This document shows, piece after piece, positions 2,714 to 40,928 of a stretch of DNA of 43,832 bases; positions within the stretch are counted from its first letter, which is position 1; the number at the start of each line of letters is the position of its first letter. The notes below the pieces were generated by a model. It saw only the letters and a program-made list of their open reading frames with translations, had not been told where the DNA came from and ran no database searches. The DNA lies in IMG/VR virus record IMGVR_UViG_3300037797_000034, positions 1-43,832 of that record. One strand, given 5' to 3'. The DNA comes from a virus (taxonomy: Duplodnaviria; Caudoviricetes). The position numbers were made by a program, and so were the translations under genes.

Positions 2714-4347
2714 TGACGCTGCCGATCCCGGTGTCGGTGCAGCTCTCGAATGGCCGGGCCGTCAAGCACATCGGGCGCGAGCTGAGGTCGCTGAACTACG
2801 GTGCGGTGATGCTGCCCGGCGGCGGCGGGTACGCCTCTGCCACGTTCGGTCTGGACCGGCCGCTGGCCTTCTCGCCGGATGAGCTGGCGTACTACACCGA
2901 CGTCGACGCGTACGACATGCGTAACGGCGGATGCGTGTGGTGCGGCCGGTTGGAGGATCCGGGCCGGGGCGTCGGGTCGGACGGCCAGATATGGGAGCTC
3001 TCGGCGGTCGGCGGGTCGGCGCACCTGCGGGACCGCACGGTGCCGCTGGTGTACGTGGACAAGCGGATCGACTCGTGGCAGCAGTTCTCCACCTCGATCA
3101 AGTCTGCGCGGTGGGACACCCAGGTCGACGGGAACGGCGCGGACTATCTGCAGGGTGTGTTCCAAGAGGGCATCACCATCGTCACGAACGATGACCTGAC
3201 GCTGGTGTACCGGCCCATCAACGAGGCCGGGGCCACGCTGGGCCGGGTGCGGGTGGCGGTCACCAACGGCGCCAGCTCCTCGTCGTGGAAGAACCGGCTG
3301 CTGACCACGCAGGGCGCCGGGTCCACCACCGTGCATGAGTTGGACTGGTCCACCACAACGGCGACGCTGGAAGGCTCGTCCGGCGGCGCGAACGCCATCC
3401 CGGCCGGGGATCATACGGCGTTTCTGCGGTTCGTGCGCACCGGGGCGAACACCGTGCTGGGGAACAATGCTTTCGGGAACCTGCAGAACTTCACGGTCAT
3501 GGTTCGTCGGCTCAAGGCCGACGGCACCACCGTCACCAGCGGCTACACCTCGGACACCATGACCGCCGATCTGATCGTCAGGGACATGCTGGGTCGGTTC
3601 CTCACCGAGTACGACGGGGCCAACGCCACCATAGCGACCACGTCGTTCGGCATCGAACAGTTCCTCAAGCAGGACGGCACCGACGCCTCCGGGGTGCTGG
3701 AGGATCTGGCGCTGCTGGAGCCTGACTACTACTTCGCCGCGTGGGACCGCAACACCGCCGGCAAATACAACGTGGAATACACGCAGTGGCCGACCACGGT
3801 GGACCTGGAAGCCGGGCTGGCCGACGGGTACACCTCCACCGGGTCGAGCGGGGGCCTGTACAACGCGGTGTCGGTGGTGTGGCGCGACGGCGGCGGGAAG
3901 CTGCGCCGCACCCGCACCACGGCCACGGTGCCGGAGCTGGATTTCACCCGCGAGGCCCGGCTGAACCTTCAGGACGAGCTGGCGTCGTCGGCCAACGCCA
4001 CCCAGATCGGCACGGCGTTCCTGAACGAGCACGCGAAGCCGCAGAACCAAGGCCAGTTGACGATCGCCCGCCCGATCTACAGCCACAGCCTGGGCCGATC
4101 ATTGATGCCGTGGGAGCTGCCGAGGCACGCGCCGGGGAAGCTGCTCCGCATCCGCGACGTCGCCCCGTCGACGGCCTCGTTGAGTGCGACCGCCCCGGAC
4201 GGGGTGTCGGTGTTCAAGGTGGTCGGCGCCACGTACAACACAGACAGCGCGTCGGCGACGCTGGATCTGGATTCGCAGCCGCGGACGGTGGCGCACCTGC
4301 TGGCGCGGGCGGCGACCCGGCCCGGACGGCGGCAGTTGCCGAAATAG
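2713..4347 (+). CDS. Minor tail protein (baseplate hub-like)
   Basis: TGATG coupling at 2711-2715; VWCGRLE motif; synteny. Confidence 0.7.
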   Translation: MTLPIPVSVQLSNGRAVKHIGRELRSLNYGAVMLPGGGGYASATFGLDRPLAFSPDELAYYTDVDAYDMRNGGCVWCGRLEDPGRGVGSDGQIWELSAVGGSAHLRDRTVPLVYVDKRIDSWQQFSTSIKSARWDTQVDGNGADYLQGVFQEGITIVTNDDLTLVYRPINEAGATLGRVRVAVTNGASSSSWKNRLLTTQGAGSTTVHELDWSTTTATLEGSSGGANAIPAGDHTAFLRFVRTGANTVLGNNAFGNLQNFTVMVRRLKADGTTVTSGYTSDTMTADLIVRDMLGRFLTEYDGANATIATTSFGIEQFLKQDGTDASGVLEDLALLEPDYYFAAWDRNTAGKYNVEYTQWPTTVDLEAGLADGYTSTGSSGGLYNAVSVVWRDGGGKLRRTRTTATVPELDFTREARLNLQDELASSANATQIGTAFLNEHAKPQNQGQLTIARPIYSHSLGRSLMPWELPRHAPGKLLRIRDVAPSTASLSATAPDGVSVFKVVGATYNTDSASATLDLDSQPRTVAHLLARAATRPGRRQLPK

Positions 4348-4587: not shown

Positions 4588-5546
4588 CCACGATCGCGGA
4601 GCAGCGCCAGAAGTGGAACGCCGTACCAGGCCGCCCGCCGATTCGGCTGCGTTCGCAGTGGGGTGCCAAGCGGTCCTACACCGACGCGCGCACCGTCACC
4701 GAGCCGGCGACCCGGCTTTTCTGTCACATCACGGTGACGAACCCGGCCAACTACAAGGGCAACGACGCGCACGCCCAGGCGATCGAGCGGATCGGCATCA
4801 GCCGGTTCCCGGCCACGGGCATCTCCTACAACTGGCTGGTCATGCCGGACGGCTCGCTGTACGAGGCGCAGCCTGTCGGGCGGCGTGGCGCGCACACCGT
4901 CAACGACTTCAAGCGCTCGACCTGTCTGACCACCGGCTGCCCCGGCCGCGGGTCGTCGCTGACCGCGCCGTCGTGGAACCTGAACTACAACGCGCGCGCG
5001 ATCGCGTTCTGCGGCCTCGAGTCCACCCCGGTGTCCGACGCCGTGGTCGAGACGTTCGCCCGCACCATCTACACCGCGTACAAGGCCGGGTTCATCACCA
5101 AGGCCGCGGCGCAGAACATCCACGGCCATCGCTGCTGCTCGTCGAAGTCGTGCCCCGGTAACCGGATGTGGGCGCGGATGAAGGACATCCAGGCCCGCGT
5201 GAACCAGCTGATCGCAGGCGCACCACTCCCGCCACCCCCGCCCCCACCTGTGGAGGAAGACATGCCTTTGACCTCTGACGACGCCGAGACCGTATGGACG
5301 GCGAAGCTGTTCAAGGAGTACGTGGACGAGGATGCCGACGGGACGCTAGAGGCCCGCACCCCGGCGGACATCCTGTACTCCACGCACAAGCTGGCCTACC
5401 TGGCCGCGAACCCGAACATCGACGCGCTGGCCGCGGCGATCGTGGCGAAGTTCCCGAACGCCGGGTCCGGCTCGATCGACCTGGCGACGGTGAAGGCCGG
5501 TGTGATCGAGGCCCTGCGTGAGGGTGTCGGGGATGCCCCGGCGTGA
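4584..5546 (+). CDS. Endolysin, N-acetylmuramoyl-L-alanine amidase (Amidase_2-like)
   Basis: CHIT, GISYNWLV, GAHT, GHR..CPG zinc-amidase motifs; poly-Pro linker. Confidence 0.88.
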   Translation: MTTIAEQRQKWNAVPGRPPIRLRSQWGAKRSYTDARTVTEPATRLFCHITVTNPANYKGNDAHAQAIERIGISRFPATGISYNWLVMPDGSLYEAQPVGRRGAHTVNDFKRSTCLTTGCPGRGSSLTAPSWNLNYNARAIAFCGLESTPVSDAVVETFARTIYTAYKAGFITKAAAQNIHGHRCCSSKSCPGNRMWARMKDIQARVNQLIAGAPLPPPPPPPVEEDMPLTSDDAETVWTAKLFKEYVDEDADGTLEARTPADILYSTHKLAYLAANPNIDALAAAIVAKFPNAGSGSIDLATVKAGVIEALREGVGDAPA

Positions 5547-5590: not shown

Positions 5591-5812
5591 GTGTTGCGAG
5601 CCGTGGAATCGAGCAACTCAAGACTCGGCTACGCCGCGCCTGAGCGCGGCGTGTGTCAGGTGTGCGGGCGGGAGCGTCCGCTGGCGTTCGGCACCGGCAT
5701 GGTGAAGCGGCACCGCGTCGGCGGGGAGCCGTGCCCGGGGGGTGCCCGGCCGCCGGCCGAGAGCAGGGCCGAGCAGGCCGAGCAGACGATACAAACCGAC
5801 GAGCGACTCTGA
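5591..5812 (+). CDS. Small Cys-containing hypothetical protein (start uncertain)
   Basis: CQVC...H...C motif; fills the gap in the operon. Confidence 0.4.
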   Translation: MLRAVESSNSRLGYAAPERGVCQVCGRERPLAFGTGMVKRHRVGGEPCPGGARPPAESRAEQAEQTIQTDERL

Positions 5813-6226: not shown

Positions 6227-6872
6227 CCAACTGCCCGCCATTCGCGGTAACCGGCTGACGGTCGTCCTGCTTATCCTGCTGTTGCTGCTGGTCGGGTGGA
6301 TTCTGTTCGACCGCGCCACGACCGAGCGGTCCGCCGAGCTGGCAGCCGACAACGCCGCGTCGATCGCCACTCAGGTTCGCGCCGCATGTGAGCGCCGCGG
6401 CCTGACGGCCGTAGAGCTAGGCGATCTGTGCCGTCAGGCCAAGGAGGTGGAGTCCCGACCGGCTGAGGTGATTCCCGGGCCACCAGGTCCGGCAGGGCCA
6501 CCCGGCAGGGATTCCACCGTTCCCGGCCCGACCGGTCCGCGAGGCTTTCCCGGCTCGATGGGCATCCAAGGTCCGCCCGGGCCGCCGGGCGCCAGCATCA
6601 CCGGCCCACAAGGCCCCGCTGGGGAGAGTGTCCAGGGGCCGCAGGGACCTGCTGGGGAGACTGGCGCGCCCGGGCCGCAGGGGGAACCCGGCACGAATGG
6701 CGCGAACGGTGACACCGGCCCGCAGGGTCCCACTGGTCCTGCTGGGGAGTCCGGCCCGGCCTGCCCGAACGACGCCGACCCGATTGAATGGACCGTCACC
6801 GACCCGCAGGCCGCGTTGATCGGCCTGACCGAGGGCACGTACCTGATCTGTCCCGCACCTGAGGAGTCCTGA
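6213..6872 (+). CDS. Membrane-anchored collagen-like (Gly-X-Y) protein
   Basis: TM helix plus a long interrupted GPx repeat region. Confidence 0.85.
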
Positions 6873-12783: not shown

Positions 12784-13725
12784 CTATAGCGAGTCCGCGA
12801 CGCGCCGCAGGGCGCGGTCGCTGCTCCGTGCGTAGATTCGGGTGGTCTCAGGCTTGGCGTGGCCGAGGAAGTCCTGCACGGCGGCCAGGTCGCCGGTCTC
12901 GTCCAGCGCGGTGGTGGCCGCCCGGTGCCGTAGCTGGTGCGGCGTGGTGCCGTCGCCGAGCGCCGCGGAGATGAGCGACGACACCCAGGTCGGGGTCATC
13001 CCGCCGCGCTTGCCGGGGAACACGAACACGGCCGGGTCGCCGAGCCCGTACCGGAAGCCTGAGCCGAGGTGCCCGGTGGCGCGGCGCTCCTGCTCGGCGG
13101 TCAGTGCGGCCAACAGCCGGGGTGCGATACCCACCCGCCGCTCGGTGTCGCGCTTGCCGCGGATGATCAGCCAGTCACCGTCGATGCTGTCCCACCGCAG
13201 CCCGGCGATCTCATGCACCCGCAACCCGCCCTGCGCCGCCAGCAGCAGCATCAACGTCAGCCGGTCGTCCGCCCCGTCGAGGGCGGCCAGCAGCACCGCA
13301 TCAGAGGCCGGGCGTGGCAGCCGCCGCGGAACCGTGATCGGATCCAGCTTCTCCGCCGGGTTCCGCTTGGCACGCCCGGCCTTGACCGCCCAGGCGTAGA
13401 AGCTCCTGACCGCGCCGCGGGCCGACTTGCGGGACTCGGCGTTCCAGTCCTGCCCGCCGAGCCACGCCTCGAGCTGGTCCAGGCTCAGCTTGAACGGGTT
13501 GCGCTGTGGGTACGCCTCGGCGAGTTTACGTAGCTGCCAGCGGCGCTGCCGGATGGTGGTCGGTGATTTGCTGACTCGTAGTGAGGTGGTCCAGCCGTCG
13601 ATGGCTGCCGCCCATGTTTCGGTGTGGTCGTGCCCGAACACTGCGCCCCCCTCGGCGCTCTTCGACCCAGGGGCGTGACCATACTCTTGACCTTGGATTG
13701 TTGGAAGCGGTTCGACGGAAGTCAT
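12784..13725 (-). CDS. int: Tyrosine integrase lacking an arm-binding domain
   Basis: GLRVHE, HQLRH, LGH..ETTRIY catalytic residues. Confidence 0.92.
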   Translation of the reverse strand: MTSVEPLPTIQGQEYGHAPGSKSAEGGAVFGHDHTETWAAAIDGWTTSLRVSKSPTTIRQRRWQLRKLAEAYPQRNPFKLSLDQLEAWLGGQDWNAESRKSARGAVRSFYAWAVKAGRAKRNPAEKLDPITVPRRLPRPASDAVLLAALDGADDRLTLMLLLAAQGGLRVHEIAGLRWDSIDGDWLIIRGKRDTERRVGIAPRLLAALTAEQERRATGHLGSGFRYGLGDPAVFVFPGKRGGMTPTWVSSLISAALGDGTTPHQLRHRAATTALDETGDLAAVQDFLGHAKPETTRIYARSSDRALRRVADSL

Positions 13726-14111
13726 GACGATCGCCGTTCACGCGATGGAGCTATGCCAAGTTCGGCTTCAAGTTCGGTAATCCGCGCCTGCATGGTGGCA
13801 CGCTCCCAATCATCAAGCGTGGCGAGTCGCTTGCGTCGGGGCAGTTCGATGCGACCGGGTTTGGCCGCTTGAGCAAACAACCAAAACACTCCGGCCACGG
13901 CACCGATCACGATGAACAGTTGCCACGCCAGGAACGTCACGCCGCCAGCCATGAGCGGGATGACGACCAGCAGCAGGTTGGTTTCCAAGGGCTCGTCAAG
14001 TTGGTCTCGCCACACGAATCGGGCTCCGAACCAAGCTGCCGTCACAGCGAAGATTCCACTGATGACCCAATAGAACGGGCCGAGCACATCAGGCAACCAA
14101 GCAAAGCTCAT
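13722..14111 (-). CDS. Membrane protein between repressor and integrase
   Basis: 2-3 TM segments; ATGA coupling on both sides. Confidence 0.7.
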   Translation of the reverse strand: MSFAWLPDVLGPFYWVISGIFAVTAAWFGARFVWRDQLDEPLETNLLLVVIPLMAGGVTFLAWQLFIVIGAVAGVFWLFAQAAKPGRIELPRRKRLATLDDWERATMQARITELEAELGIAPSRERRSS

Positions 14112-14500
14112 GACGCCATCCTCAGAACTAATGCGAGCGCGGGGGTGAGCGGAATGCGCTTGCGGAGCCGGGTGATCTCGTTCTCGACCGGGGTGTGACC
14201 GGGAGTCGCGGGTTGGCTTGGTATACCAGCAGGTCTACGCTGGTGAACCGTAATACCGGGCTGACCTGCGGGTTCGTTGCCCATCAACCACTCCAGCGGC
14301 ACGCCGGTTCGCAGCGCCCAGAGGCGCAGGTCCGACCGGCGCGGCCGGTTGTGGTCGTTGCACCACCGGCTGATCGTCCCACGCGAGACGCCTAGCTCGT
14401 CGGCCATCTCCTGCACGGACACGCCGGCGTGGGCCAGTGAGCGTTGCAGCTTCCACCCGAGGGTCCACTCGGGTACGAGCTGTTCGACAATCTGACTCAT
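14108..14500 (-). CDS. Immunity repressor (XRE HTH)
   Basis: EMADELGVSRGTISRW HTH; WALRTGVPLEWL; divergent from the cro-like gene. Confidence 0.85.
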   Translation of the reverse strand: MSQIVEQLVPEWTLGWKLQRSLAHAGVSVQEMADELGVSRGTISRWCNDHNRPRRSDLRLWALRTGVPLEWLMGNEPAGQPGITVHQRRPAGIPSQPATPGHTPVENEITRLRKRIPLTPALALVLRMAS

Positions 14501-14625
14501 GACGCCAGTCTGCCTGACATGTCGCACGTGCGTCAATAGGTAGTGCTTGGTCAACATCGCAGACCCGCAGAATCTCTGAGCCTCGCATCCTTGACGCATG
14601 TGTGACATTGTGCGACAGTGACGCT
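14501..14625. promoter_or_regulatory. Divergent promoters/operators (lysis-lysogeny switch)
   Basis: TTGACG-17bp-GACAGT 6 nt before GTG 14626; TTGACG-18bp-CAGACT 6 nt before ATG 14500 (minus strand); shared 18-bp motif TTGACGCAYGTGYGACAT. Confidence 0.7.
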
Positions 14626-14823
14626 GTGAGCGCAACTGCACGACTCCTGAGCACCGGCCAAGTCGCCGAACGGCTCGGCCTGCACATCCGCAAGATCCAG
14701 CGCATGGCCGAGAACGGCGAACTGCCGTACGTCGAGAAGCTGCCCGGCCACAACGGTCGGTACGTCTTCGACGCTGCCCTCATCGACGTGCTCGCCCGCC
14801 AGCAACAGCGGGAGGCGTCGTGA
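14626..14823 (+). CDS. Cro/excisionase-like HTH (HTH_17/MerR type)
   Basis: LLSTGQVAERLG...IQRMAENGELP. Confidence 0.82.
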   Translation: MSATARLLSTGQVAERLGLHIRKIQRMAENGELPYVEKLPGHNGRYVFDAALIDVLARQQQREAS

Positions 14824-14826
14824 CGT

Positions 14827-15218
14827 GGCAGTCAGGGCACGGAAGGGCTGGGTCCGTCAGGTCTCGGCTGGGCGCTGCGTTTCGTGGCAAGGCCGGTCTT
14901 GGCAGTCACGGCTGGTCAGGTCGGCGCGGGTCGAGTCTCGGCAAGGCCCGGCCTGGCCGGGCAGGTTCGGCGCGGCAGTTCCCGTCAGGGCTAGTCAAGG
15001 CGTCGCACGGCGCGGTTTGTCCGGGCAGGCGTGGCCGGGTTTGGCAGCGCGTGTCTCGGCAAGGCCGGGTCCGGCAGGGCAGGCCGGGTCGGGCTTGTCT
15101 TGGCCGGGCTGGGCTTGTCGTGGTCGATCGAGGCGGTGCGAGGTCTGGCAGGCCAGGCACGGCCAGGTTTGGCTCGTTCGGGTGTGTCAGTGCACGTCTA
15201 GGCGCGGCCGGGCTGGCC
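14827..15218 (+). ncRNA. Pentamer (NN+GGY-like) array 1: six putative guide units
   Basis: Strict 5-nt period; units of 14, 11, 12, 10, 13 and 12-13 pentamers separated by GGC-A-GTC/GGY. Confidence 0.8.
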
Positions 15219-15230
15219 TGAAGTAACAGC

Positions 15231-15255
15231 GGCCCCGCTCACACGGAGCGGGGCC
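15231..15255 (+). other. 10-bp stem hairpin closing array 1
   Basis: GGCCCCGCTC-ACACG-GAGCGGGGCC. Confidence 0.7.
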
Positions 15256-15281: not shown

Positions 15282-15911
15282 ATGGCAGCACCGAAGAAGC
15301 AGGACGAGGGCCAGATCGAGATCAGCCGCATCCCGGCTGAGAGCCTTCGCATCCCCATCGTGGGGACCACTCCGCTGATCGTTCACAGATTTTCGGAGAA
15401 GGCCAAGCGCCAGATGCTCGACAACATGCAAGGCCGCAAGTCGCCGAAGGAGCCGAAGAACCCCGAGGCCGAGTACGAGGCCGCGTTCTACCGGCTCAAG
15501 GACGGGTCGCCCGGCTTCCCGGTCATCGCGTTCAAGGCGGCCACGGTCGGAGCTGCCCGGTTCTACGGGAATCTCACGATGACCTCGCTCAAACAGTCCA
15601 TCTTCTTTGCCGGCGAGGTCGGCGACGACGGACGGATGCTGACCGCGATCCACGGCGAACCTCGCATGCGTGAGGACGTGGTGACGGTCAACCGGTCCGG
15701 TTCGGACCTGCGTTACCGGCCCGAGTTCCCCGAGTGGAGTGCCGTTCTCGAGGTCACGTTCGTCAAGTCGCTCCTGACCCGCAACTCGGTGCTGTCGCTG
15801 CTGGACGCGGGCGGCATGGGTGTCGGGGTCGGCGAGTGGCGTCCCGAACGTGACGGCGACTTCGGCCAATTCAAGATCGACGAGACCAAGGATATCGAGG
15901 TCATCGGATGA
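15282..15911 (+). CDS. Cas7/RAMP-like protein, putative effector of the pentamer arrays
   Basis: IVGTTPLIVH first strand, FPVIAFKAA helix, YRPEF..W strand, C-terminal Gly-rich loop GVGVGEWRPERDGDFGQF. Confidence 0.72.
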   Translation: MAAPKKQDEGQIEISRIPAESLRIPIVGTTPLIVHRFSEKAKRQMLDNMQGRKSPKEPKNPEAEYEAAFYRLKDGSPGFPVIAFKAATVGAARFYGNLTMTSLKQSIFFAGEVGDDGRMLTAIHGEPRMREDVVTVNRSGSDLRYRPEFPEWSAVLEVTFVKSLLTRNSVLSLLDAGGMGVGVGEWRPERDGDFGQFKIDETKDIEVIG

Positions 15912-15915
15912 GCAT

Positions 15916-16320
15916 GGCAGGCGCGGCTCGTTTGGGCATGTTCGGTCTAGGCACGGCTCGTTGTACATGGTCCGGCAAGGCAGGCATGGTCCGTCCTGGT
16001 CGGGCGCGGCGAGTCGCGTTTCGTCGCGGCCTGTTCGGGCACGGTCGGGCAGGTACGGCATGGCTCGGCCCGGCTTTGCGGGTCGTGTCCGGTTCTGGTG
16101 TGGCGCGGCAGTCGCGGCCAGTCATGTCCTGGCGGGTCCAGGCACTGCGAGTCATGTCCTGGCACGGTACGGCAGTCGAGGCAGGGCTCGTCGGGGCCAG
16201 TCTCGGCGCGTCACGGCATGTTCAGACTCGGCTAGGTTCGGCATGGCAGGCGAGGCCAGGCTCGGCACGTCTAGGCCTGTCAGGTCCCGTCCAGGCCCGG
16301 CTCGGTCAGGCAGGTGCGGC
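15916..16320 (+). ncRNA. Pentamer array 2: six putative guide units
   Basis: Units of ~12 (one 4-nt step), 13, 11, 12, 14 and 12 pentamers; same linkers. Confidence 0.8.
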
Positions 16321-16734
16321 ATGAGCCTGCGCGACCAACTGCAAGCGGTGTACGACGCCCACGGTCAGCTCACACCAAAGCTGATCGTGGACGTCGCCCG
16401 CGACGAGACGCACCCGCTGCACTCCCGCTTCGAGTGGGACGACACGGTGGCGGCTGAGCGATACCGCCAGGACCAAGCGCGTGACCTGATCCGGAAAGTC
16501 CGCGTGGTGTACCGCGAAGGCGACGAGAAGAACCCGCCGCAAACCATCCGCGCCTACCACTCCGTGCCCGACGGCGACGGCTACGCCTACCGCTCCACAG
16601 ACGAGATCGTCCACGACCCGCTCCTGACAAAGATGCTGCTCGCCCAGATGGAGCGCGACTGGAAAGACCTGCACCGCCGCTGGTCACACATGGGCGAGTT
16701 CATCGAAATGGTGCGAAAGGACGTGGCGGCATGA
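16321..16734 (+). CDS. Hypothetical protein, partner of the RAMP-like gene (137 aa)
   Basis: LTPKLIVDVARDETHPLHSRFEWDD...QARDLIR; flanked by arrays on both sides. Confidence 0.8.
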   Translation: MSLRDQLQAVYDAHGQLTPKLIVDVARDETHPLHSRFEWDDTVAAERYRQDQARDLIRKVRVVYREGDEKNPPQTIRAYHSVPDGDGYAYRSTDEIVHDPLLTKMLLAQMERDWKDLHRRWSHMGEFIEMVRKDVAA

Positions 16735-16737
16735 CAT

Positions 16738-16801
16738 GGCAGTCGGGGTTTGGCGGGGCTGGTCGGGGCCGGGTCCGGTTTGGCATGGCGGGGCCTGTCC
16801 A
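16738..16801 (+). ncRNA. Pentamer array 3: single unit
   Basis: GGCAGTC linker plus 11 pentamers. Confidence 0.75.
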
Positions 16802-16802
16802 G

Positions 16803-16916
16803 ATGTCCAAGAACGGCTCCAAGGAACCCGAGCCCATCGACGGCAAACCGCATCCACGCCCGCCGCCGTCCAAGCCACTCCCGCCGCCGCAGAAACCGAC
16901 AGGGAAGCAGATATGA
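16803..16916 (+). CDS. Small Pro-rich peptide
   Basis: MSKNGSKEPEPIDGKPHPRPPP...; ATGA coupling to the next ORF. Confidence 0.5.
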   Translation: MSKNGSKEPEPIDGKPHPRPPPSKPLPPPQKPTGKQI

Positions 16917-17005
16917 GCCGCCGCCCGTTCGCGCCGCTGGCCGTGGCCGCCGTGCTCGCCGCGCAACTGCTCGCCTGGCTGACCGGCTGGAACTGGCCGG
17001 CCTGA
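16913..17005 (+). CDS. Small membrane peptide
   Basis: ATGA coupling; hydrophobic. Confidence 0.5.
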   Translation: MSRRPFAPLAVAAVLAAQLLAWLTGWNWPA

Positions 17006-17025: not shown

Positions 17026-17274
17026 ATGCCGCGCCAACACATGCAGGCCCAGATCGCCGAACACATCGCGCTGGCCCGCGCCGACCGGTGGGACGGCACC
17101 GACCTGCAGATCGCCGCCGGCATCGTCCGCCAGGTCATCGACCCGTTCCTGGCCGCGAGTGATGTGCAGCGCGAATTGGCGGCGGTGCGCGCGGCGGCGG
17201 CCCGTGAGCGTGAGGGGTTCCTGTTCGAGATCGCCGCGCTGCGGGCACGGCTCGCCGGGCGGGTGACGGCATGA
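17026..17274 (+). CDS. Hypothetical protein
   Basis: AAGGGGG RBS. Confidence 0.6.
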   Translation: MPRQHMQAQIAEHIALARADRWDGTDLQIAAGIVRQVIDPFLAASDVQRELAAVRAAAAREREGFLFEIAALRARLAGRVTA

Positions 17275-32891: not shown

Positions 32892-33635
32892 TTGGGAGAT
32901 TCTGTGCCGAACGACCGCACTAACGAGAAGGTCGTGGTGGCGTACTGCCATCCCGGCAACATCGACGCCGCCTTCCACGAGTCGCTGCTGGATCTGCTGG
33001 TCTACGACATGGCGTTCCACCGGCGCATCGTCAACGGCGGCGGTCGGCTGGCGCACCAGGCGTCGGCGAACCTGTCGGGGCCGCGTAACGACGTGGTCCG
33101 GAAGTTTCTCGACGGCTCGGACGCCGACTGGTTGTGGTTCGTGGACACCGACATGGTGTTTCTGCCGGACACGGTCGAGAAGCTGCTTGAGTTCGCCAAC
33201 CCGGTCACCGCGCCGATCGTCGGCGGGTTGTGCTTCTCCATCGACAAGGGCCACATCTACCCGACCCTGTACGGGCTGATGGGCGAAGAGGACAACCCGC
33301 AGGTGATTCGGTTCCACGAGTGGGCGCCGGATGCGATGTTCCAGGTGGCTGCGACTGGCACCGGCTGCATCCTGATCCACCGTTCGGTGTTCGAGCGGAT
33401 CCGCGACTTCAAGGTCCCGGGCACCGGGCAGGTCGGTTTCAACGCGGCGTTCCCCTGGTTCCAGGAGACCGCGCACCACAGCCGACCGGTGGGTGAGGAC
33501 ATCACGTTCTGCTGGCGGGCCGGCGTGGTCGGCATCCCCGTACACGTCAACACCGCTGTGCATATCGGGCATGTCAAGCAGCGGCTGCTCGATCTGGACG
33601 CGTATCTGCAACAGCGCGGAGAGGTGACGGCATGA
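32892..33635 (+). CDS. GT-A fold glycosyltransferase
   Basis: WFVDTD, GTGCILI, GEDITFC. Confidence 0.85.
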   Translation: MGDSVPNDRTNEKVVVAYCHPGNIDAAFHESLLDLLVYDMAFHRRIVNGGGRLAHQASANLSGPRNDVVRKFLDGSDADWLWFVDTDMVFLPDTVEKLLEFANPVTAPIVGGLCFSIDKGHIYPTLYGLMGEEDNPQVIRFHEWAPDAMFQVAATGTGCILIHRSVFERIRDFKVPGTGQVGFNAAFPWFQETAHHSRPVGEDITFCWRAGVVGIPVHVNTAVHIGHVKQRLLDLDAYLQQRGEVTA

Positions 33636-33871
33636 AGTACCCGAAGATCAACGGATTCGTCGGTTTCCGCGGTGACAGCGTTCCGCTGGAGCCGGTATCG
33701 GACGATCATCCGATCGTCGCGGCGTTCCCGGATCTGTTCACCGACACCCCGCCGCCCGGGGTGGAGAAGCCGAAGCGGCGGACTTTGAAGAAGGCCGCGG
33801 CCACTCCAGTCGAAAAGCCGGCGGAAAAACCGGTCGAACAGCCGACGGGCACGGAGCAGCGCCCGCGATGA
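33632..33871 (+). CDS. Small head-region hypothetical protein
   Basis: DDHPIVAAFPDLF; ATGA couplings. Confidence 0.65.
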   Translation: MKYPKINGFVGFRGDSVPLEPVSDDHPIVAAFPDLFTDTPPPGVEKPKRRTLKKAAATPVEKPAEKPVEQPTGTEQRPR

Positions 33872-34512
33872 CGGTTGACACGGCTGTCATCGTCCCCACT
33901 ATGCGGCCGGCGAACGCGGAGTCGTTCATGGCTTCCCTGAGCGCCTCGACCGATACGGCCACGGTCTACGCCGTGACCGACGCCGAAAGTGCCGCGGCGT
34001 GGCGCTCAGCGGGCGCCGAGGTGTTTGTGGGCGACGAGGTGTCGTTCGCGCAGCGGGTCAACGCCGGATACCGGGCCACCGACGAGCCGTGGCTGTTCCT
34101 GGTCGGTGACGACGTGCGGTTCCACCGCAACTGGCTCATCAACGCCAAGCTGATCGCGTCCCGCCGCCATCACGTGGTCGGGACCGCCGATCTGGCGAAC
34201 CCGCGGGTGATGTCCGGCGACCACGCCACCCACCTGCTGATCCGCCGCTCCTATGTGGACGAGGTCGGCGCGTCGTGGGACGGGCCGAAGACGGTGTGCC
34301 ACGAGGGGTACCGGCACTGGTTCGTTGACGATGAGATCGTGACGGCGGCCCAGCGGCGGGGCGTGTGGGCATTCGCCCGCTCGTCCGTGGTGGAACACCT
34401 GCATCCGCTGACCGGTAAGGCCGACTGGGACGACGTGTACGAGATCGGCATCGCGCACAAGGACGCCGACGAGGAACTGTTCCGGTCCCGTCTGCTCGAG
34501 CACCTGGGGTGA
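33868..34512 (+). CDS. GT2-like glycosyltransferase
   Basis: VIVPT, LVGDD, FVDDE, VEHLHP. Confidence 0.8.
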   Translation: MTVDTAVIVPTMRPANAESFMASLSASTDTATVYAVTDAESAAAWRSAGAEVFVGDEVSFAQRVNAGYRATDEPWLFLVGDDVRFHRNWLINAKLIASRRHHVVGTADLANPRVMSGDHATHLLIRRSYVDEVGASWDGPKTVCHEGYRHWFVDDEIVTAAQRRGVWAFARSSVVEHLHPLTGKADWDDVYEIGIAHKDADEELFRSRLLEHLG

Positions 34513-35123
34513 TCTCCTACATTGTCGCGTCGAACGACGCGAAGATCCTGGATGCGAACCTGAAGGCCACGCTCGAACTCGCAGGCGAGGATGAGCTGAT
34601 CGTGGTCGATGATCCTCCGTCGATCGCGGTGGCCTACAACCAGGGCCAGTCCAGGGCACGGAACACGATCCGCTGCTACGTCCATTCGGACGTGCAGATA
34701 CTGGATCCGATCCAGTTGCGCGCCGATCTACTACGCACTTGTGTGCCAGCGGTCGGCATAGTGGGAGTGATCGGCAGTTTCGACCGCGTGGTGCCCTGGT
34801 GGTGTTGTAGACAGCCGAAGGGCAGCGTGATCGATGCGCGGACGGGGCTGCTCAACTACGACGGCGGCGGTTATTGCATCTACCTGGACGGGTTGCTGCT
34901 CGCCACCGCGCAGGATCTCACCTGGGACGAGTCGTACACCGGATTCCACATGTACGACCACGACATCTGTGAGCAGATGCTGGCCCGCGGCCTGCCGAAT
35001 TACTGCATACCGGGCGGCCAGTCGGTGCTGCACAACACTCGGAACCCGGCGGACGTGTCCCAACTCGACGGTTGGGACGCGGCCGTGGCCAGGTTCCGCG
35101 GCAAATGGGGGATGGCTGCATGA
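34509..35123 (+). CDS. Glycosyltransferase-like protein (Glyco_tranf_2_5-like)
   Basis: AYNQG, YVHSD, LDGLLLA, FHMYDHDIC. Confidence 0.8.
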   Translation: MISYIVASNDAKILDANLKATLELAGEDELIVVDDPPSIAVAYNQGQSRARNTIRCYVHSDVQILDPIQLRADLLRTCVPAVGIVGVIGSFDRVVPWWCCRQPKGSVIDARTGLLNYDGGGYCIYLDGLLLATAQDLTWDESYTGFHMYDHDICEQMLARGLPNYCIPGGQSVLHNTRNPADVSQLDGWDAAVARFRGKWGMAA

Positions 35124-36295
35124 ACAGGACGCACTGCGGCGGTTGTGGCTCGCCGGGCTTGCAGCCGTTCCTAGATCTAGGGTCTTCGCCGTTGGCCGAT
35201 CGGTTCCCAGGAACCCCCGGCGAGCCGGAAGAAAACTACCCGCTGCAACTGGCGGTATGCACGTCCTGCTGGTTGGCGCAGTTGACCGAGGTCGTCCCCG
35301 ATGGACTGCTGTACGGGGCGGACTACGGGTTCTACACCGGGTCGTCGCCGTCGGCGGTCGAGTACTTTCAGCAGTACGCGGGCTGGGTGAATGACCGCTT
35401 CGACCAGGACGGCAAGTTCTTGGTCGAGATCGCCTGCAACGACGGGACGATGCTCGCCGAATTCGAGTGTCGCACGCTCGGTGTCGAACCAGCCGACGGC
35501 CCCGCCACTGCGGCGCGAGCCAAGGGCCTGTCTGTGGTGCACGAGCCGTTCGGGCTGGACACGGCGCGGCGGATCGTCGCCGACCACGGCCCGGCCGACG
35601 TGGTTATCGCGAACAACGTGGCAGCGCACGTCGCCGACCTGCACGACTTCTTCGCCGGCGTCGAGCGCCTGCTCGCGCCCGGCGGTGTCGCCGTGGTGGA
35701 GGTGCAGTACCTAGCGGACCTGATCGCCGGGAACCAGTTCGATCACGTCTATCACGAGCACCGCTGCTACTTCACCGTCGACTCGTTGGCGCGGGTCGCG
35801 TCGCGGCACGGCCTCGCCGCTGAATCGGTGACCAGGACCTCGGCGCAGGGCGGGTCGATACGGGTCACGCTCTGCCGCGGGGAGCCACATGAGCCGATCG
35901 AGCCGGTGTGGCTTCGGCGGCCGTCGACGTTCCTGAGCCTGCAAGGGCGGGCCGAACAGATCCGGAACCGGCTGCTGGAGCTGATTGACGAGCAGATCCG
36001 TGCCGGCCGCAAGGTCGCCGGCTACGCCGCATCGGCCAAGTCGGCCACGCTGCTGAACTTCTGCGGCATCGGCCCCGACCAGCTCGACCACATCGTCGAC
36101 ACCACACCGCACAAGATCGGCCGCTACACCCCCGGCACGCACATCCCGATCGTCGGGCCGGGCGACCGGCCCGAACCCGACGTGTACCTGCTGCTGGCAT
36201 GGAACTACCTACCCGGCGTGCTGCGCCGCGAACGGGAGTTCATCGATCGCGGCGGCCGGTTCTTGGTGCCGATCCCGTACCCGGTGCTGCTATGA
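35120..36295 (+). CDS. NDP-sugar C-methyltransferase (Zn-binding, class I SAM)
   Basis: CxxC..DLG.SPLA, EIACNDG, ANNVAAH, YHEH, LLAWN. Confidence 0.88.
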   Translation: MNRTHCGGCGSPGLQPFLDLGSSPLADRFPGTPGEPEENYPLQLAVCTSCWLAQLTEVVPDGLLYGADYGFYTGSSPSAVEYFQQYAGWVNDRFDQDGKFLVEIACNDGTMLAEFECRTLGVEPADGPATAARAKGLSVVHEPFGLDTARRIVADHGPADVVIANNVAAHVADLHDFFAGVERLLAPGGVAVVEVQYLADLIAGNQFDHVYHEHRCYFTVDSLARVASRHGLAAESVTRTSAQGGSIRVTLCRGEPHEPIEPVWLRRPSTFLSLQGRAEQIRNRLLELIDEQIRAGRKVAGYAASAKSATLLNFCGIGPDQLDHIVDTTPHKIGRYTPGTHIPIVGPGDRPEPDVYLLLAWNYLPGVLRREREFIDRGGRFLVPIPYPVLL

Positions 36296-37239
36296 AGGCG
36301 CTTATCACCGGGGTCACCGGACAGTCTGGCTCGTACCTCGCCGAACAACTCCGCAACGACGGCCACGAGGTCTGGGCACTGCTACACGGCCAGCACAACC
36401 CCAAGAAGGCTTGGGTCGAGTCGCTGGTCCCCACGATCCGCTGGGTTCCCGGCGACCTGCTCGACCCGTCGTCGCTGCACCGGGCACTTGAAGCGTCGCA
36501 GCCGGACATCGTCTACAACCTGGCCGCGATCACGTTCGTCGGCATGAGCTGGGACCAGCCGACCCTGGTCAGCGAAGTCACCGGCCTGGGCGCGCTGCGG
36601 ATGCTGGAGGCGATCCGCCAGGTCGACCCGCAGATCCGGTTCGTGCAGGCGTCCTCTTCGGAGATGTTCGGATCTAACCCGCCGCCGCAGAGCGAGACCA
36701 CCAAGTTCCATCCGCGTTCGCCGTACGGCGTGGCGAAACTATTCGCGCACTTCACCACCGTGAACTACCGGGAGTCGCACGGGATCTTCGCCGCGACGGC
36801 GATCATGTTCAACCACGAGAGCCCCCGGCGCGGCGTCGAGTTCGTCTCGCGGAAGGTCGCCATCGCCGCGGCCCGGATTTCCCGCGGCCTGGACCGCACC
36901 GTGCGGCTGGGGAACATCAACTCGTACCGCGACTGGGGTTACGCCCCGGACTACATGAACGCCGTGCAGATGATCGGCAACCATGCTGAGCCGGACGACT
37001 TCGTGGTCGCCACCGGCGATTCCCGCCAGGTCAAGGAGCTGTGTGAGATCGCGTTCCGCGAGGTCGGCCTGGACTACCGCGACCACGTGGTGATCGACCC
37101 GCAGTTCTACCGGCCGGCGGACGTGGAGTTCCTGCGCGGCGACGCGTCGAAGATCCGCGACGTGTTGGGCTGGCGGCCGACGGTGCCGTTCGAGGAGATG
37201 ATCGCCCGAATGGTCAAGCACGAACTGGCGCAACTGTGA
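36292..37239 (+). CDS. gmd: GDP-mannose 4,6-dehydratase
   Basis: ITGVTGQSGSYLAE, QASSSEMFG, PRSPYGVAK, FNHESPRRG. Confidence 0.92.
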   Translation: MKALITGVTGQSGSYLAEQLRNDGHEVWALLHGQHNPKKAWVESLVPTIRWVPGDLLDPSSLHRALEASQPDIVYNLAAITFVGMSWDQPTLVSEVTGLGALRMLEAIRQVDPQIRFVQASSSEMFGSNPPPQSETTKFHPRSPYGVAKLFAHFTTVNYRESHGIFAATAIMFNHESPRRGVEFVSRKVAIAAARISRGLDRTVRLGNINSYRDWGYAPDYMNAVQMIGNHAEPDDFVVATGDSRQVKELCEIAFREVGLDYRDHVVIDPQFYRPADVEFLRGDASKIRDVLGWRPTVPFEEMIARMVKHELAQL

Positions 37240-37850
37240 GCGCGCTGGTCTCGATCGTCACCCCCACCATGCCGGGCCGCGAGGCTCTATTGCTGGACCG
37301 GTGCATCCCGTCGGTGCGGGCGCAGACGTGGCCGCACGCCGAGCACGTGATCGTGTCCGACCGCAACCCCGGCTTGGCCGAGAAGATGGCTGCCCACCCG
37401 GACATCCGGTTCGTGCAGATCAACGAGACGTGGCGGGACGGGCACGCCGACCACTGCCCCGGCGCGCTGCCCTGGCAGGTCGGCTCACTGTTGGCGCTCG
37501 GCGAGTACATCGGGTTCGTCGGCGATGACGACGAGCTGCTGCCCGATCACATCGCCCGGCACGTGTCTGTGATGACTGAGCATGACCTGCACTTCACTAT
37601 CTCGCCGGTGCGGTTCGTGGTGCATGGCCAGGAACGGTTTGTCGTCGGCGACGACACGCTCGCGGTCGGGCACGTCGACTCCGACGGGATCATGTGCCGA
37701 GCCGAGGCGCTGCGCACCGCCACCTGGCAACTCGGGGTGGACGCACCAGACGCCCTGCTGCCGCACGACTGGGCCGCCGGCGGCCTGCGCTGGATGTTCA
37801 TCGGCGGCGAGCCGACAGCGATCCACCACGACGGGTGGGCCGCACGATGA
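37236..37850 (+). CDS. GT2 glycosyltransferase
   Basis: VSIVTPT, SVRAQT, FVGDDD. Confidence 0.8.
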   Translation: MSALVSIVTPTMPGREALLLDRCIPSVRAQTWPHAEHVIVSDRNPGLAEKMAAHPDIRFVQINETWRDGHADHCPGALPWQVGSLLALGEYIGFVGDDDELLPDHIARHVSVMTEHDLHFTISPVRFVVHGQERFVVGDDTLAVGHVDSDGIMCRAEALRTATWQLGVDAPDALLPHDWAAGGLRWMFIGGEPTAIHHDGWAAR

Positions 37851-37861
37851 CTGGGGGAAGC

Positions 37862-38869
37862 GTGACGAACGTACTTATCACCGGTGGTGCCGGGTTCGCC
37901 GGCCACCACCTGGTGGAGCACCTCCTGGAGACCACCGACTGGGATCTGGTGGTCCTGGACTCGCTTACCTATGCCGGCCGTACGGATCGGCTTACCGACT
38001 GCGCCGGATACGACCCGGCCCGGGTGCGGTTGCTGTGGCACGACCTGCGAGCCCCGATCCACCCCCACCTGGACGAGCAGATCGGCGACGTCGACGCCGT
38101 GCTGCATCTGGCCGCCGAGTCCCACGTCGACCGGTCCATCACGGATCCGGGCCCGTTCGTGCGAAACAACGTGGACGCGACGCTGAACCTGCTTGAATGG
38201 GCGCGCACCCGGACCTTGACCCACTTCGTGCAGGTCTCCACCGACGAGGTGTACGGCCCGGCGCGCGAGGGTCAGCGTCACGTTGAGTGGGATCCGCACT
38301 TGCCGTCGAATCCGTACGCGGCTTCGAAGTCGGCGCAGGAGGCCCTGGCGATCGCCTGGTGGCGCACCTACGGCGTGCCGGTGGTCATCTCGAACACAAT
38401 GAACATGTACGGGGAGCGGCAGCACCCCGAGAAGTTCGTCCCCAAGGTCCTACGCGCCGCACTGAGCGGCGAACAGATGAATCTGCACGCCCGGGTAGCC
38501 CCCGACGGCTGGGAGCCCTCGGCGAGGCACTGGCTGCACGCCCGCAACCACGCCGACGCGCTGCGCTGGATGATCGCCGAGACCACCCCGGCCGCGTACC
38601 CCGCCGCAGACCGGCCCGACCGCTGGCATGTGGCCGGCGAGGAGTTGGACGTGTTGCAGATGGCCGAGCGGATCGCCGCCGCTGCCGGTCGACCGCTGCG
38701 GTACGAGTTCGTGGACTACCACGCGTCACGGCCCGGTCACGACCATCGGTACGCGCTGGACCCGTCGAAGGTGCACGCCGCCGGGTGGAAACCGCCGATC
38801 GGCGTGCACGAGTCACTGGAGCGGACGGTCCGGTGGGCGATGGCCCACCCGGAATGGCTGCGCGACTAA
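37862..38869 (+). CDS. rfbB: dTDP-glucose 4,6-dehydratase-like SDR
   Basis: TGGAGFAG, HLAAESHVDRSI, STDEVYG, PYAASK, RPGHDHRY. Confidence 0.88.
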   Translation: MTNVLITGGAGFAGHHLVEHLLETTDWDLVVLDSLTYAGRTDRLTDCAGYDPARVRLLWHDLRAPIHPHLDEQIGDVDAVLHLAAESHVDRSITDPGPFVRNNVDATLNLLEWARTRTLTHFVQVSTDEVYGPAREGQRHVEWDPHLPSNPYAASKSAQEALAIAWWRTYGVPVVISNTMNMYGERQHPEKFVPKVLRAALSGEQMNLHARVAPDGWEPSARHWLHARNHADALRWMIAETTPAAYPAADRPDRWHVAGEELDVLQMAERIAAAAGRPLRYEFVDYHASRPGHDHRYALDPSKVHAAGWKPPIGVHESLERTVRWAMAHPEWLRD

Positions 38870-38878
38870 GGGGTATAG

Positions 38879-39508
38879 ATGCCGAACCTGTACGCCACCC
38901 CCGAAGAACTCAAGGCCCGTTTCAGCATCGGCGACAACTTCGAGGACACGATGGTCGAGTCGGCGCTGGACTCGGCGTCGCGGGCCATCGACCAGCACTG
39001 CCAGCGCATCTTCTATACGACGGCATCCACCACGGCGACGTTCGTTGCCACGGACCGGTACCGCGTCAAGCTCGCTGATACCGACGTGTGGGTTGGCGAC
39101 CTCGTCACGGTCACCAGCCTCAAGACCGACGCCGCCGGCGACGGGACGTTCGAGACGACGTGGGCCGCGACGGACTACCAACTGTGGCCGGCGAACGCGG
39201 CCAGCGGCCCGGAGGCGCGGCCCTACTCCGAGGTGCGTGCGGTCGGGGCGAATCTGTTCCCGGTGCCGTACAGCCGGTCGCAGCGCGCAGACCGGGTGCA
39301 GATCGTCGGCACGTTCGGCTGGCCCACCGCGCCGCCGTCGGCGGTGAAGGAAGCCTGCCTGATGCTGGCTGCTGAGCTGTTCAAGCTCAAGGACGCCCCG
39401 TTCGGGATCGCCGGCGTCTCTGATTTCGGCGTGGTGCGGATCCGGGAGAACCCGAAGGTCGCCTCGTTGCTGATGCCGTATCAGCGGTTCTCGGTGCTGG
39501 TGGGCTGA
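38879..39508 (+). CDS. Head-tail adaptor
   Basis: YATPEELK...ASRAID...FGW..P..VKEACL. Confidence 0.8.
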   Translation: MPNLYATPEELKARFSIGDNFEDTMVESALDSASRAIDQHCQRIFYTTASTTATFVATDRYRVKLADTDVWVGDLVTVTSLKTDAAGDGTFETTWAATDYQLWPANAASGPEARPYSEVRAVGANLFPVPYSRSQRADRVQIVGTFGWPTAPPSAVKEACLMLAAELFKLKDAPFGIAGVSDFGVVRIRENPKVASLLMPYQRFSVLVG

Positions 39509-39906
39509 TGGCCACGGTGCAGGAGATCCGCGAGGGCATCGACGACCGGCTCGCCACCATCGCCGACTTGCGGCACAGTCCCGTCGTGCCGGGGGTCGTC
39601 AACCCGCCGCACGCGTTCGTCAAGCGTCGTCAGACCACGTTCGGCGTATCCATGGACGGCGAGGACGACGTAACGTTCGCGGTCACCGTCCTGGTGTCGT
39701 GGGCCGACCAGACGACCGCCCAAGAGTCTCTCGACGAATACCTGGCGTCGACCGGGGCCAAATCCATCAAGGCCGCCATCGACGCCGACCCTACGCTTGG
39801 CGACATCGTCGACTTCGCGCACGCGACGATCGTTGAGGACGAGCGGATCACGGCGTTCTACGGCGTCGACTACCTGGCCGCAGACATCGTCGTCGAGGTG
39901 GGCTGA
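39508..39906 (+). CDS. Tail terminator/neck protein
   Basis: Synteny; size; DPTLG motif. Confidence 0.7.
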   Translation: MATVQEIREGIDDRLATIADLRHSPVVPGVVNPPHAFVKRRQTTFGVSMDGEDDVTFAVTVLVSWADQTTAQESLDEYLASTGAKSIKAAIDADPTLGDIVDFAHATIVEDERITAFYGVDYLAADIVVEVG

Positions 39907-40928
39907 TGCGCTGGGTTGTGTGCCACCCCGGCCCCGCGTTCAGCGTCCACGACGTGTACGCAGGCTGGATCGAGGCCCTTGAGGAGCTCGGCCAGCAGGT
40001 GCAGATCTTCAACCTCGAGGACCGGCTCACCTTCTACGACGCGGCCTACTTCAACGTTGCCGAAGGTTCGTTCCGCAAGGCCGTCCCCCCGGAGCAGGCC
40101 GTCGAGCTCGCGGTCAACGGGCTGTACGCGCCGCTGTACCGGTTCCGCCCGCACGTGCTGCTGATCGTCTCGGCGTTCCTGATTCCGACCGAGTTGATGG
40201 ACCTGGCCCGTGCCTACGGCACCAAGGTCGTGGTCCTGCACACCGAGGCCCCGTACGAGGACACCCGCCAGCTCGACGTTGCCGCGCACGCCGACCTGAA
40301 CCTGCTCAACGACCCGGTGAACATCGACCGCTACCGGGCCGTGGCGCCGACCGAGTACATGCCGCACGCCTACCGGCCGAAGCTGCACCGCCACGGCCCG
40401 ATGGACAAGGACCTGGCCGCGGACCTGGCGTTCGTCGGGACCGGGTTCGAGTCGCGCATCGAGTTCTTCGAGGCCATGAACCTCGACGGGCTGGATGTGC
40501 TGCTCGCCGGGAACTGGCAGCGGCTCTCCGAGGATTCTCCGCTGCGCAAGTACGTGGCGCACGACATCAAGCAGTGCGTGGACAACTCCGAGGGCGTGCG
40601 GATCTACCAGTCGGCCAAGCTGGGGTTGAACCTGTACCGCCGCGAAACCGTGGACGGCGACTCGCACGCCGGCTGGGCGATGGGTCCGCGCGAGGTCGAG
40701 ATGGCCGCGGTCGGGTTGCCGTTCCTACGCGACCCCCGCGGCGAGGGCGACGAGGTGCTGCCGATGCTGCCCCGGTTCGACTCGCCGGACGAGGCGGCCG
40801 AACTGACCCACTGGTGGCTGAACCATGAAGGACTTCGGGCCGAGGCCGCACGGCAGGCCCGGGAAGCGATCGCCGACCGGACGTTCGCGAGTAATGCTAA
40901 GGAGTTACTCCGACTGCTTGACGCGTAA
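39906..40928 (+). CDS. GT-B glycosyltransferase (CgeB/Glyco_trans_1_2-like)
   Basis: DLAFVGT, YQSAKLGLN, PREVEMAAVG. Confidence 0.82.
   Translation: MRWVVCHPGPAFSVHDVYAGWIEALEELGQQVQIFNLEDRLTFYDAAYFNVAEGSFRKAVPPEQAVELAVNGLYAPLYRFRPHVLLIVSAFLIPTELMDLARAYGTKVVVLHTEAPYEDTRQLDVAAHADLNLLNDPVNIDRYRAVAPTEYMPHAYRPKLHRHGPMDKDLAADLAFVGTGFESRIEFFEAMNLDGLDVLLAGNWQRLSEDSPLRKYVAHDIKQCVDNSEGVRIYQSAKLGLNLYRRETVDGDSHAGWAMGPREVEMAAVGLPFLRDPRGEGDEVLPMLPRFDSPDEAAELTHWWLNHEGLRAEAARQAREAIADRTFASNAKELLRLLDA

Follow-up and report, generated by a model that had tools for sequence, protein, structure and literature searches.

The outermost predicted guide of a phage VIPR cassette matches relatives' alleles of the adjoining gene better than its own

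The VIPR cassette and its phage context

The analysed stretch of DNA (the window, 43,832 nucleotides) is that of a temperate actinobacterial-type phage with integrase, repressor, WhiB, portal and capsid genes and a G+C content of 65-70% in most bins. The integrase showed 84-96% amino acid identity in six related contigs; a search for it in genome contigs gave 45 candidates, none of which was confirmed. After the capsid gene, positions 32892-40928 hold a cluster of glycosyltransferases, a C-methyltransferase and two GDP-mannose dehydratase/epimerase-like genes, which is shared in part with the sequence G004 and suggests virion glycosylation. The locus between the excisionase-like gene and the remaining early region is a VIPR system of the staggered-array form. 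The features of this part of the window are as follows.

12784..13725, minus strand: tyrosine integrase (Pfam Phage_integrase, E 5e-20)
14108..14641, minus strand: repressor-like HTH protein (Pfam HTH_3 and Phage_CI_repr)
14602..14823, plus strand: excisionase/Cro-like HTH gene, adjoining the cassette on its left (Pfam HTH_17, E 7e-9)
14827..15220, plus strand: vrRNA array 1, units 1-6, staggered GGCA + (GGYNN)n (unit parse)
15231..15255, plus strand: 10-bp G+C hairpin after array 1 (read from the sequence)
15282..15911, plus strand: vipr, 209 aa, RAMP-like, with a glycine-rich loop (homologue profile against PDB)
15789..15817, plus strand: site in vipr fitted by a guide of L001, the closest VIPR relative (19/20 here, 16/20 in the vipr of L001 itself)
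15916..16308, plus strand: vrRNA array 2, units 7-12, then a two-pentamer stub to 16324 (unit parse)
16321..16734, plus strand: vap, an accessory gene of 137 aa (adjacent to vipr in most related loci; PHROG 15946, which has no functional annotation)
16738..16801, plus strand: unit 13, the last predicted vrRNA (unit parse; orthologous unit in L001)
16803..16916, plus strand: proline-rich ORF, 37 aa (small family in related phages)
16833..16862, plus strand: own allele of the unit-13 target, with a poorer fit than that of the relatives (7/10 dinucleotides, 15/20 bases)
17026..17274, plus strand: 82-aa gene, downstream synteny marker (41-53% identity in L001, G001, G002 and G003)

Three blocks of five-base repeats are arranged around two genes, vipr and vap. 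The blocks were parsed into 13 units, each consisting of GGCA and 10-14 pentamers, in which a fixed GGY/GTC triplet is combined with a variable pair (NN). The 9-16 GGY/NN repeats beside vipr that are typical of VIPR were found, with GTC/GTT instead of GGY in many scaffolds. The second typical element, a vap gene beside vipr, is represented by the 137-aa gene, which is conserved in related loci. According to the text of the VIPR paper, the Vipr-vrRNA complex binds double-stranded DNA on either strand with a one-base skip and represses transcription, and the published targets are satellites, lysis-lysogeny regulators of resident prophages, REP decoys, vipr and vrRNAs (10.64898/2026.04.26.720920). 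The gapped code deduced from the window in the earlier note was correct but not new, since the one-skip code is the published VIPR rule.

The assignment of vipr was based on a profile of 32 homologues (alignment A5), which matched the PDB entry 36pp_D, 'SUSP1 Vipr protein', with an E value of 5.9e-12 in the C-terminal glycine-rich region. A tblastn search with Vipr gave weak matches in Felixounavirus-type phages, covering residues 143-200, and the closest vipr homologues in cultured phages were those of Gordonia and Mycobacterium phages. The vap product had no Pfam and no PDB match. Searches of Pfam, PHROGs and PDB sequences assigned neither vipr nor vap to a nuclease family; a weak REase match (E 0.07) was obtained for a single protein among 27 vap members. 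The hairpin after array 1 is without a T run and was not called as a terminator. Units 1-12 had no match of at least 80% in the window or in G001-G004, and none in 47 further sequences (unit 7 was searched there in truncated form only). In unit 7 (15916-15978), a one-base deletion breaks the pentamer register near the 3' end. Stop-free frames span all three array blocks (14820-15221, 15908-16324 and 16731-16916); each begins where an RTGA motif overlaps the preceding stop codon, and array 2 leads into vap via an ATGA overlap, an arrangement in which translational coupling through the arrays is possible.

Unit 13 and alleles of the proline-rich ORF

Unit 13 is composed of GGCA (16738-16741) and 12 pentamers (16742-16801), and all 12 of its scaffolds are intact GGY/GTC triplets. 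Its variable pairs are GG TT GG TG GG CG CC TT AT GG CT CA, of which the first ten (16745-16791) spell P-[IM]-[NK]-G-R-P-[HQ]-P-[NK]-P. The closing GGCAG handle, present after the last units of other loci, is absent after unit 13, making its processing uncertain. The proline-rich ORF that follows is also open in frame from the ATG codons at 16731 and 16785, and had neither a Pfam nor a PHROG match. Its family comprises about 40 phage proteins of 32-48 aa with two C-terminal sub-types.

The gapped complementarity between unit 13 and this ORF, described in the earlier note, proved to be real. The reverse complement of NN 1-10 agreed with positions 16833-16862 at 7/10 dinucleotides and 15/20 bases. 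The matched stretch keeps the reading frame of the ORF, covering codons 11-20 (PIDGKPHPRP), and the skips fall on third codon positions. No other of the 87,608 positions of the window, both strands included, reached 7/10. The shuffle check proposed for this match was borderline on its own: at least seven NN matches within the next ~100 bases were obtained in 1.1-1.2% of 10,000 order shuffles, a figure which alone is unconvincing because there were 13 units to choose from (about 0.14). When the NN were drawn from all units, at least seven matches nearby arose in 0.02-0.1% of draws, and 32 of 600 order shuffles reached 7/10 somewhere in the whole window. NN 11-12, omitted previously, matched 0/4 bases on the own ORF; the whole unit scored 7/12 dinucleotides and 15/24 bases, and the base score was reached by 13% of shuffles. 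The own match, 75% for NN 1-10 or 63% for the whole unit, is below the 80% cut-off of the VIPR paper. Among the sequencing runs listed for this DNA, which contain only small shares of it, none was of RNA; in the four of ten runs examined, no contig spanned unit 13 and the footprint.

It is the evidence from homologues that lifts the match above chance. The proposal that unit 13 targets the homologous locus in related phages was borne out by the ORF orthologues of G001, G002 and G003, each of which matched NN 1-10 at 9/10 dinucleotides and 19/20 bases, in frame; shuffled guides reached 19/20 on these three ORFs with p values of 0.0002-0.0005, and units 1-12 scored at most 13/20 on them. NN 11-12 matched none of the three relatives, so that over all 12 NN the score was 19/24 (79%), just under the 80% cut-off of the VIPR paper. 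The perfect ten-NN site that had been predicted did not appear, with no match among viral contigs and none in the 42 members of the ORF family. As for the predicted amino acid variants, the K>R and R>K exchanges were present in all three relatives, but D>N was seen in G002 only, which has a different single mismatch instead.

Further orthologues were sought with several patterns. A relaxed target pattern (two positions relaxed and a third left free), designed after L001 had been seen, returned four matches among viral contigs, namely the three ORF orthologues and one chance match (L040), and the predicted CG was present at the free dinucleotide in all three orthologues. A pattern placed outside the footprint gave 78 matches, including the same three sequences and 75 unrelated ones, and a further outside-footprint pattern recovered one of the three plus L001. 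A pattern for the 3' end of the ORF gave two matches in metagenome contigs, both unrelated by translation, and none in genome contigs. With protein alignment A2 as a query for related loci, 53 candidates were obtained and none was confirmed. L040 and L044 were rejected as target orthologues, being chance matches in unrelated sequence.

In the three relatives, which are temperate phages, the genes follow each other as repressor, excisionase-like gene, variable cargo, proline-rich ORF and 82-aa gene, with other genes instead of the cassette, and their integrases are 90-96% identical to that of the window. No vipr match was found in these contigs, which are only 47-66% complete. The cassette slot is occupied by a DNA methyltransferase gene in G001, and no pentamer runs were found in the slot of G002, G003, L138, L139 or L140. 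When the family of 42 sequences, including those of the window and related loci, was scored at the protein level (arginine taken as CGN), ten sequences reached 19/20 and none 20/20. Five of the ten read PIDGRPHPKP and five PINDRPHPKP, each one base off the guide. One base separates the guide from each of the two commonest arginine-bearing alleles, as would be expected if it served to cover a family of variable sequences.

The closest VIPR relative, L001, whose Vipr is 94% identical, carries a last unit orthologous to unit 13 followed by a diverged copy of the ORF. The two guides differ at 5/12 NN. The L001 guide matched its own ORF at 8/13 dinucleotides, with a permutation p value of 0.004 on dinucleotides and 0.07 on bases. 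On DNA, it matched 21/26 bases in the cassette-free L140 versus 17/26 in its own ORF; it fits the PINDRPHPKP sub-family, with up to 23/26 at the protein level. Covariation between each guide and its own ORF was considered and dropped, as each guide fits the ORF of the other phage about equally, which points to the gene family and not to self.

The own allele of the window has K15 (AAA) and R19 (CGC), where the relatives have R (CGN) and K (AAA); these are conservative swaps, each of which removes both read bases. An escaped self-target, suggested in the earlier note, is compatible with these swaps, but the ORF differs more outside the footprint than inside it: compared with G001 and G003, 4/20 read-position bases differ in the footprint and 10-11/20 in codons 1-10. 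The footprint of P0020 is identical to that of the window, the cassette-free L139 and the cassette-bearing L001 agree in their footprint residues, and L138 has nearly the same ones. These comparisons did not reveal selection for escape within the footprint, and a selected escape of the own allele is no more than possible.

Last guides across VIPR loci

To place unit 13 among other guides, 244 units were parsed from 35 VIPR loci, comprising the window, 31 of 37 related loci and three cultured phages; L026, L029, L030 and L035 (likely duplicates), L037 (short match) and L024 (no tract) were left out. Every unit of a locus was compared with the same 450 bases after the last unit, and matches with p <0.05 were counted. 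Flank matches were found for 9/35 last units versus 8/209 other units (Fisher p 1e-4), and the difference persisted without the window and L001 (7/33 versus 8/187, p 0.0025). In a subset chosen post hoc, after the full-set result, namely the loci whose cassette ends with the array, flank matches were found for 8/25 last guides versus 3/142 others; the remaining 17 of the 25 last guides had no flank match. In this subset, skips of 0, 2 and 3 bases gave 0, 3 and 1 matches of 25 last guides. The two-base-skip control on the full set gave 4/35 versus 5/209 (p 0.027), including one 7/11 match, which indicates that the null is not perfectly flat. Last guides swapped in from other loci matched the flank in 10/210 cases. 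In arrays ending before vap, no clear last-guide match was found beyond vap, and the first guide did not differ significantly with respect to the upstream flank (3/40 versus 4/203, p 0.09).

Among the last guides, only those of the window and L001 resemble each other, and the flanking genes that were matched differ by locus (the proline-rich ORF, a head-tail adaptor, a tape measure and a virion protein gene). In seven of the nine matches, the exceptions being L004 and L009, the skips coincide with third positions of codons in the gene considered most plausible, which was the author's choice among the ORFs and had PHROG families in five cases. Three more clades have an orthologue of the neighbour gene to which the guide fits better than to the own copy. 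The last guide of L002 matched its own flank at 18/24 and L004 at 22/24 on DNA; L004, the better target, itself carries VIPR. For the head-tail adaptor of L013, the own match was 17/22, with an own protein-level upper bound of 18, whereas five of the 124 covering homologues reached at least 19/22 and one 22/22 as protein-level upper bounds, and 11/11 codon boxes agreed in P0120. The tape measure gene of L023 scored 10/14 (own bound 11), in contrast to 13/14 boxes as an upper bound in 4/14 homologues, and these better homologues again include a K/R difference. The neighbour genes of L002 and L027 had only 30-40% identical counterparts or no match in the annotated phage set.

Several observations were made alongside this survey. 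In L022, the third-from-last guide (2780-2844) matched the adjacent terminase large-subunit gene (3094-3131) at 7/13, wobble-aligned. VIPR cassettes annotated as hypothetical proteins are present in the Gordonia phages UmaThurman and Ecliptus and the Mycobacterium phage Saal; the cassettes of the cultured phages lie at 4617-4927 (L148), 4629-4820 (L149) and 3670-3832 (L150), and gene 40 of the UmaThurman annotation corresponds to the array. The L001 guide at 5639-5688, the first after vipr, which matched the vipr of the window at 19/20 and its own at 16/20, matched 16-18/20 in the vipr of 19 other loci; from this, VIPR relatives appear to target each other's VIPR. The L005 guide at 6439-6488 matched 16-17/20 in the N-terminal part of the vipr of six distant loci.

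Interpretation and relation to known systems

We consider it likely that unit 13 is directed at rival phages: it fits their allele of the neighbouring gene (19/20) better than its own (15/20), and Vipr would likely silence the rival early operon while largely sparing its own. This presupposes that unit 13 is expressed and processed as a guide, that a 19/20 match silences and a 15/20 match does not, and that the window phage and the target relatives meet in one host; the shared integrases may reflect a shared host and attachment site. Vipr bound in the ORF would block the rival early operon just past the cargo slot, and judging by gene order the block would presumably lie upstream of the replication and recombination genes. 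We explain the adjacency of the target by linkage: if a guide is aimed at a gene that all relatives have in common, recombination between mosaic phage genomes would expose its own carrier to it, unless a resistant allele moved together with the guide. Such an allele would have to be linked to the cassette, as are the alleles of the flanking gene and of vipr.

Alternatively, unit 13 could be a relic which once fitted an ancestral allele, its own or a rival's, and is now decaying, partly absorbed into the 5' end of the ORF and without function as a guide. The missing closing handle, the lack of any match of NN 11-12 and the frame shared with the ORF from the ATG codons at 16731 and 16785 agree with such decay, as do the array-like leaders at the start of the related proteins P0002, P0026 and P0027. 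We nevertheless regard it as rather unlikely, given that all 12 scaffolds are intact and that the diverged guides of the window and L001 each fit living family alleles (19/20, and 21/26 on DNA or up to 23/26 on protein, respectively). Cis autoregulation or insulation, in which weak Vipr binding downstream would damp read-through into the phage's own early genes, is also unlikely. In its favour, unit 13 and the residual own match, which exceeds chance, are 31 bases apart within one apparent operon, no terminator-like site was called between the cassette and the ORF, and own matches of 55-77% recur at cassette edges. Against this, some orthologues fit better than the own gene wherever close ones were found, indicating a non-self target, the residual own match follows from homology alone, and the VIPR paper reports no self match of at least 80% (10.64898/2026.04.26.720920). 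The autoregulation raised in the earlier note gained no positive support beyond that residual match. A chance meeting of a G-rich guide with a C-rich, proline-coding stretch is very improbable: the single-locus permutation p value of about 0.011 with 13 units available and the whole-unit base score reached by 13% of shuffles would allow it, but shuffles that preserve composition attain 19/20 on the ORFs of the relatives with p ≤0.0005, the relatives match at positions where the own gene fails, the same arrangement is seen with unrelated guides and genes, and ordinary RNA folding of 16731-16920 gave a guide-ORF hairpin no better than shuffles (z +1.47).

The locus resembles the staggered-array form of VIPR outlined in the legend of fig. 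S18 (10.64898/2026.04.26.720920). In both, a temperate phage carries vipr and a single accessory gene bordered by pentamer arrays, the units keep a 4+5n register with 10-14 repeats, the own match is below 80%, and the targets in competing phages are wobble-aligned with a one-base skip. The differences are that here the last guide aims at orthologues of the cassette-flanking gene and that many scaffolds are GTC/GTT. The VIPR system itself is known, and the rule that last guides point towards flanking-gene orthologues appears undescribed: guides aimed at the flanking gene are not described in the text of 10.64898/2026.04.26.720920, 10.64898/2026.10.15.759431, 10.64898/2026.04.26.720927 and 10.64898/2026.10.21.760802, the figures, data files S1-S4 and supplementary tables of which may list such guides. 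The vipr- and vrRNA-targeting guides treated in the text of 10.64898/2026.10.15.759431 are alike in that guides against shared sequence score lower on the own copy, and the L001 guide against the vipr of the window (19/20 versus 16/20 on its own) is a case of this type. There, however, the shared target is VIPR itself, whereas here it is an unrelated neighbour gene that differs per locus.

A further likeness is found in the free-standing homing endonucleases SegA, SegE, SegF, SegG and MobE of T4, which the text of PMC2988022 presents as optional intergenic elements with a target in the neighbouring gene of an element-free relative. A neighbour-gene target in element-free relatives, with a poorer own allele, is seen here as well, at the level of sequence match only. 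The T4 enzymes are protein-guided nucleases that act by cutting and gene conversion (PMC2988022), whereas Vipr is an RNA-guided binder, and the searches of vipr and vap against Pfam, PHROGs and PDB sequences revealed no site-specific nuclease domain. As a tentative idea, which we think possible but not probable, VIPR cassettes could act as an RNA-guided, nuclease-free drive, in which the last guide silences or stalls replication of the rival flank allele and recombinants with the resistant allele gain the cassette.

Self-avoidance and the origin of guides are open questions in VIPR because the system is without a PAM and without a described acquisition step. If the drive idea is true, the outermost guide would mark the homing address of the cassette, be re-programmed at each new insertion site, and open a direct route to the origin of vrRNA guides. 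With the naturally occurring pairs of alleles (15/20 own, 19/20 rival), a single assay can show how far mismatches are tolerated, and UmaThurman, Ecliptus and Saal offer experimental entry points. For guides without a database match, the rule would be to look in the family of the flanking gene. A position effect that stems from linkage or drive would account for the many different places in phage genomes at which VIPR cassettes are found.
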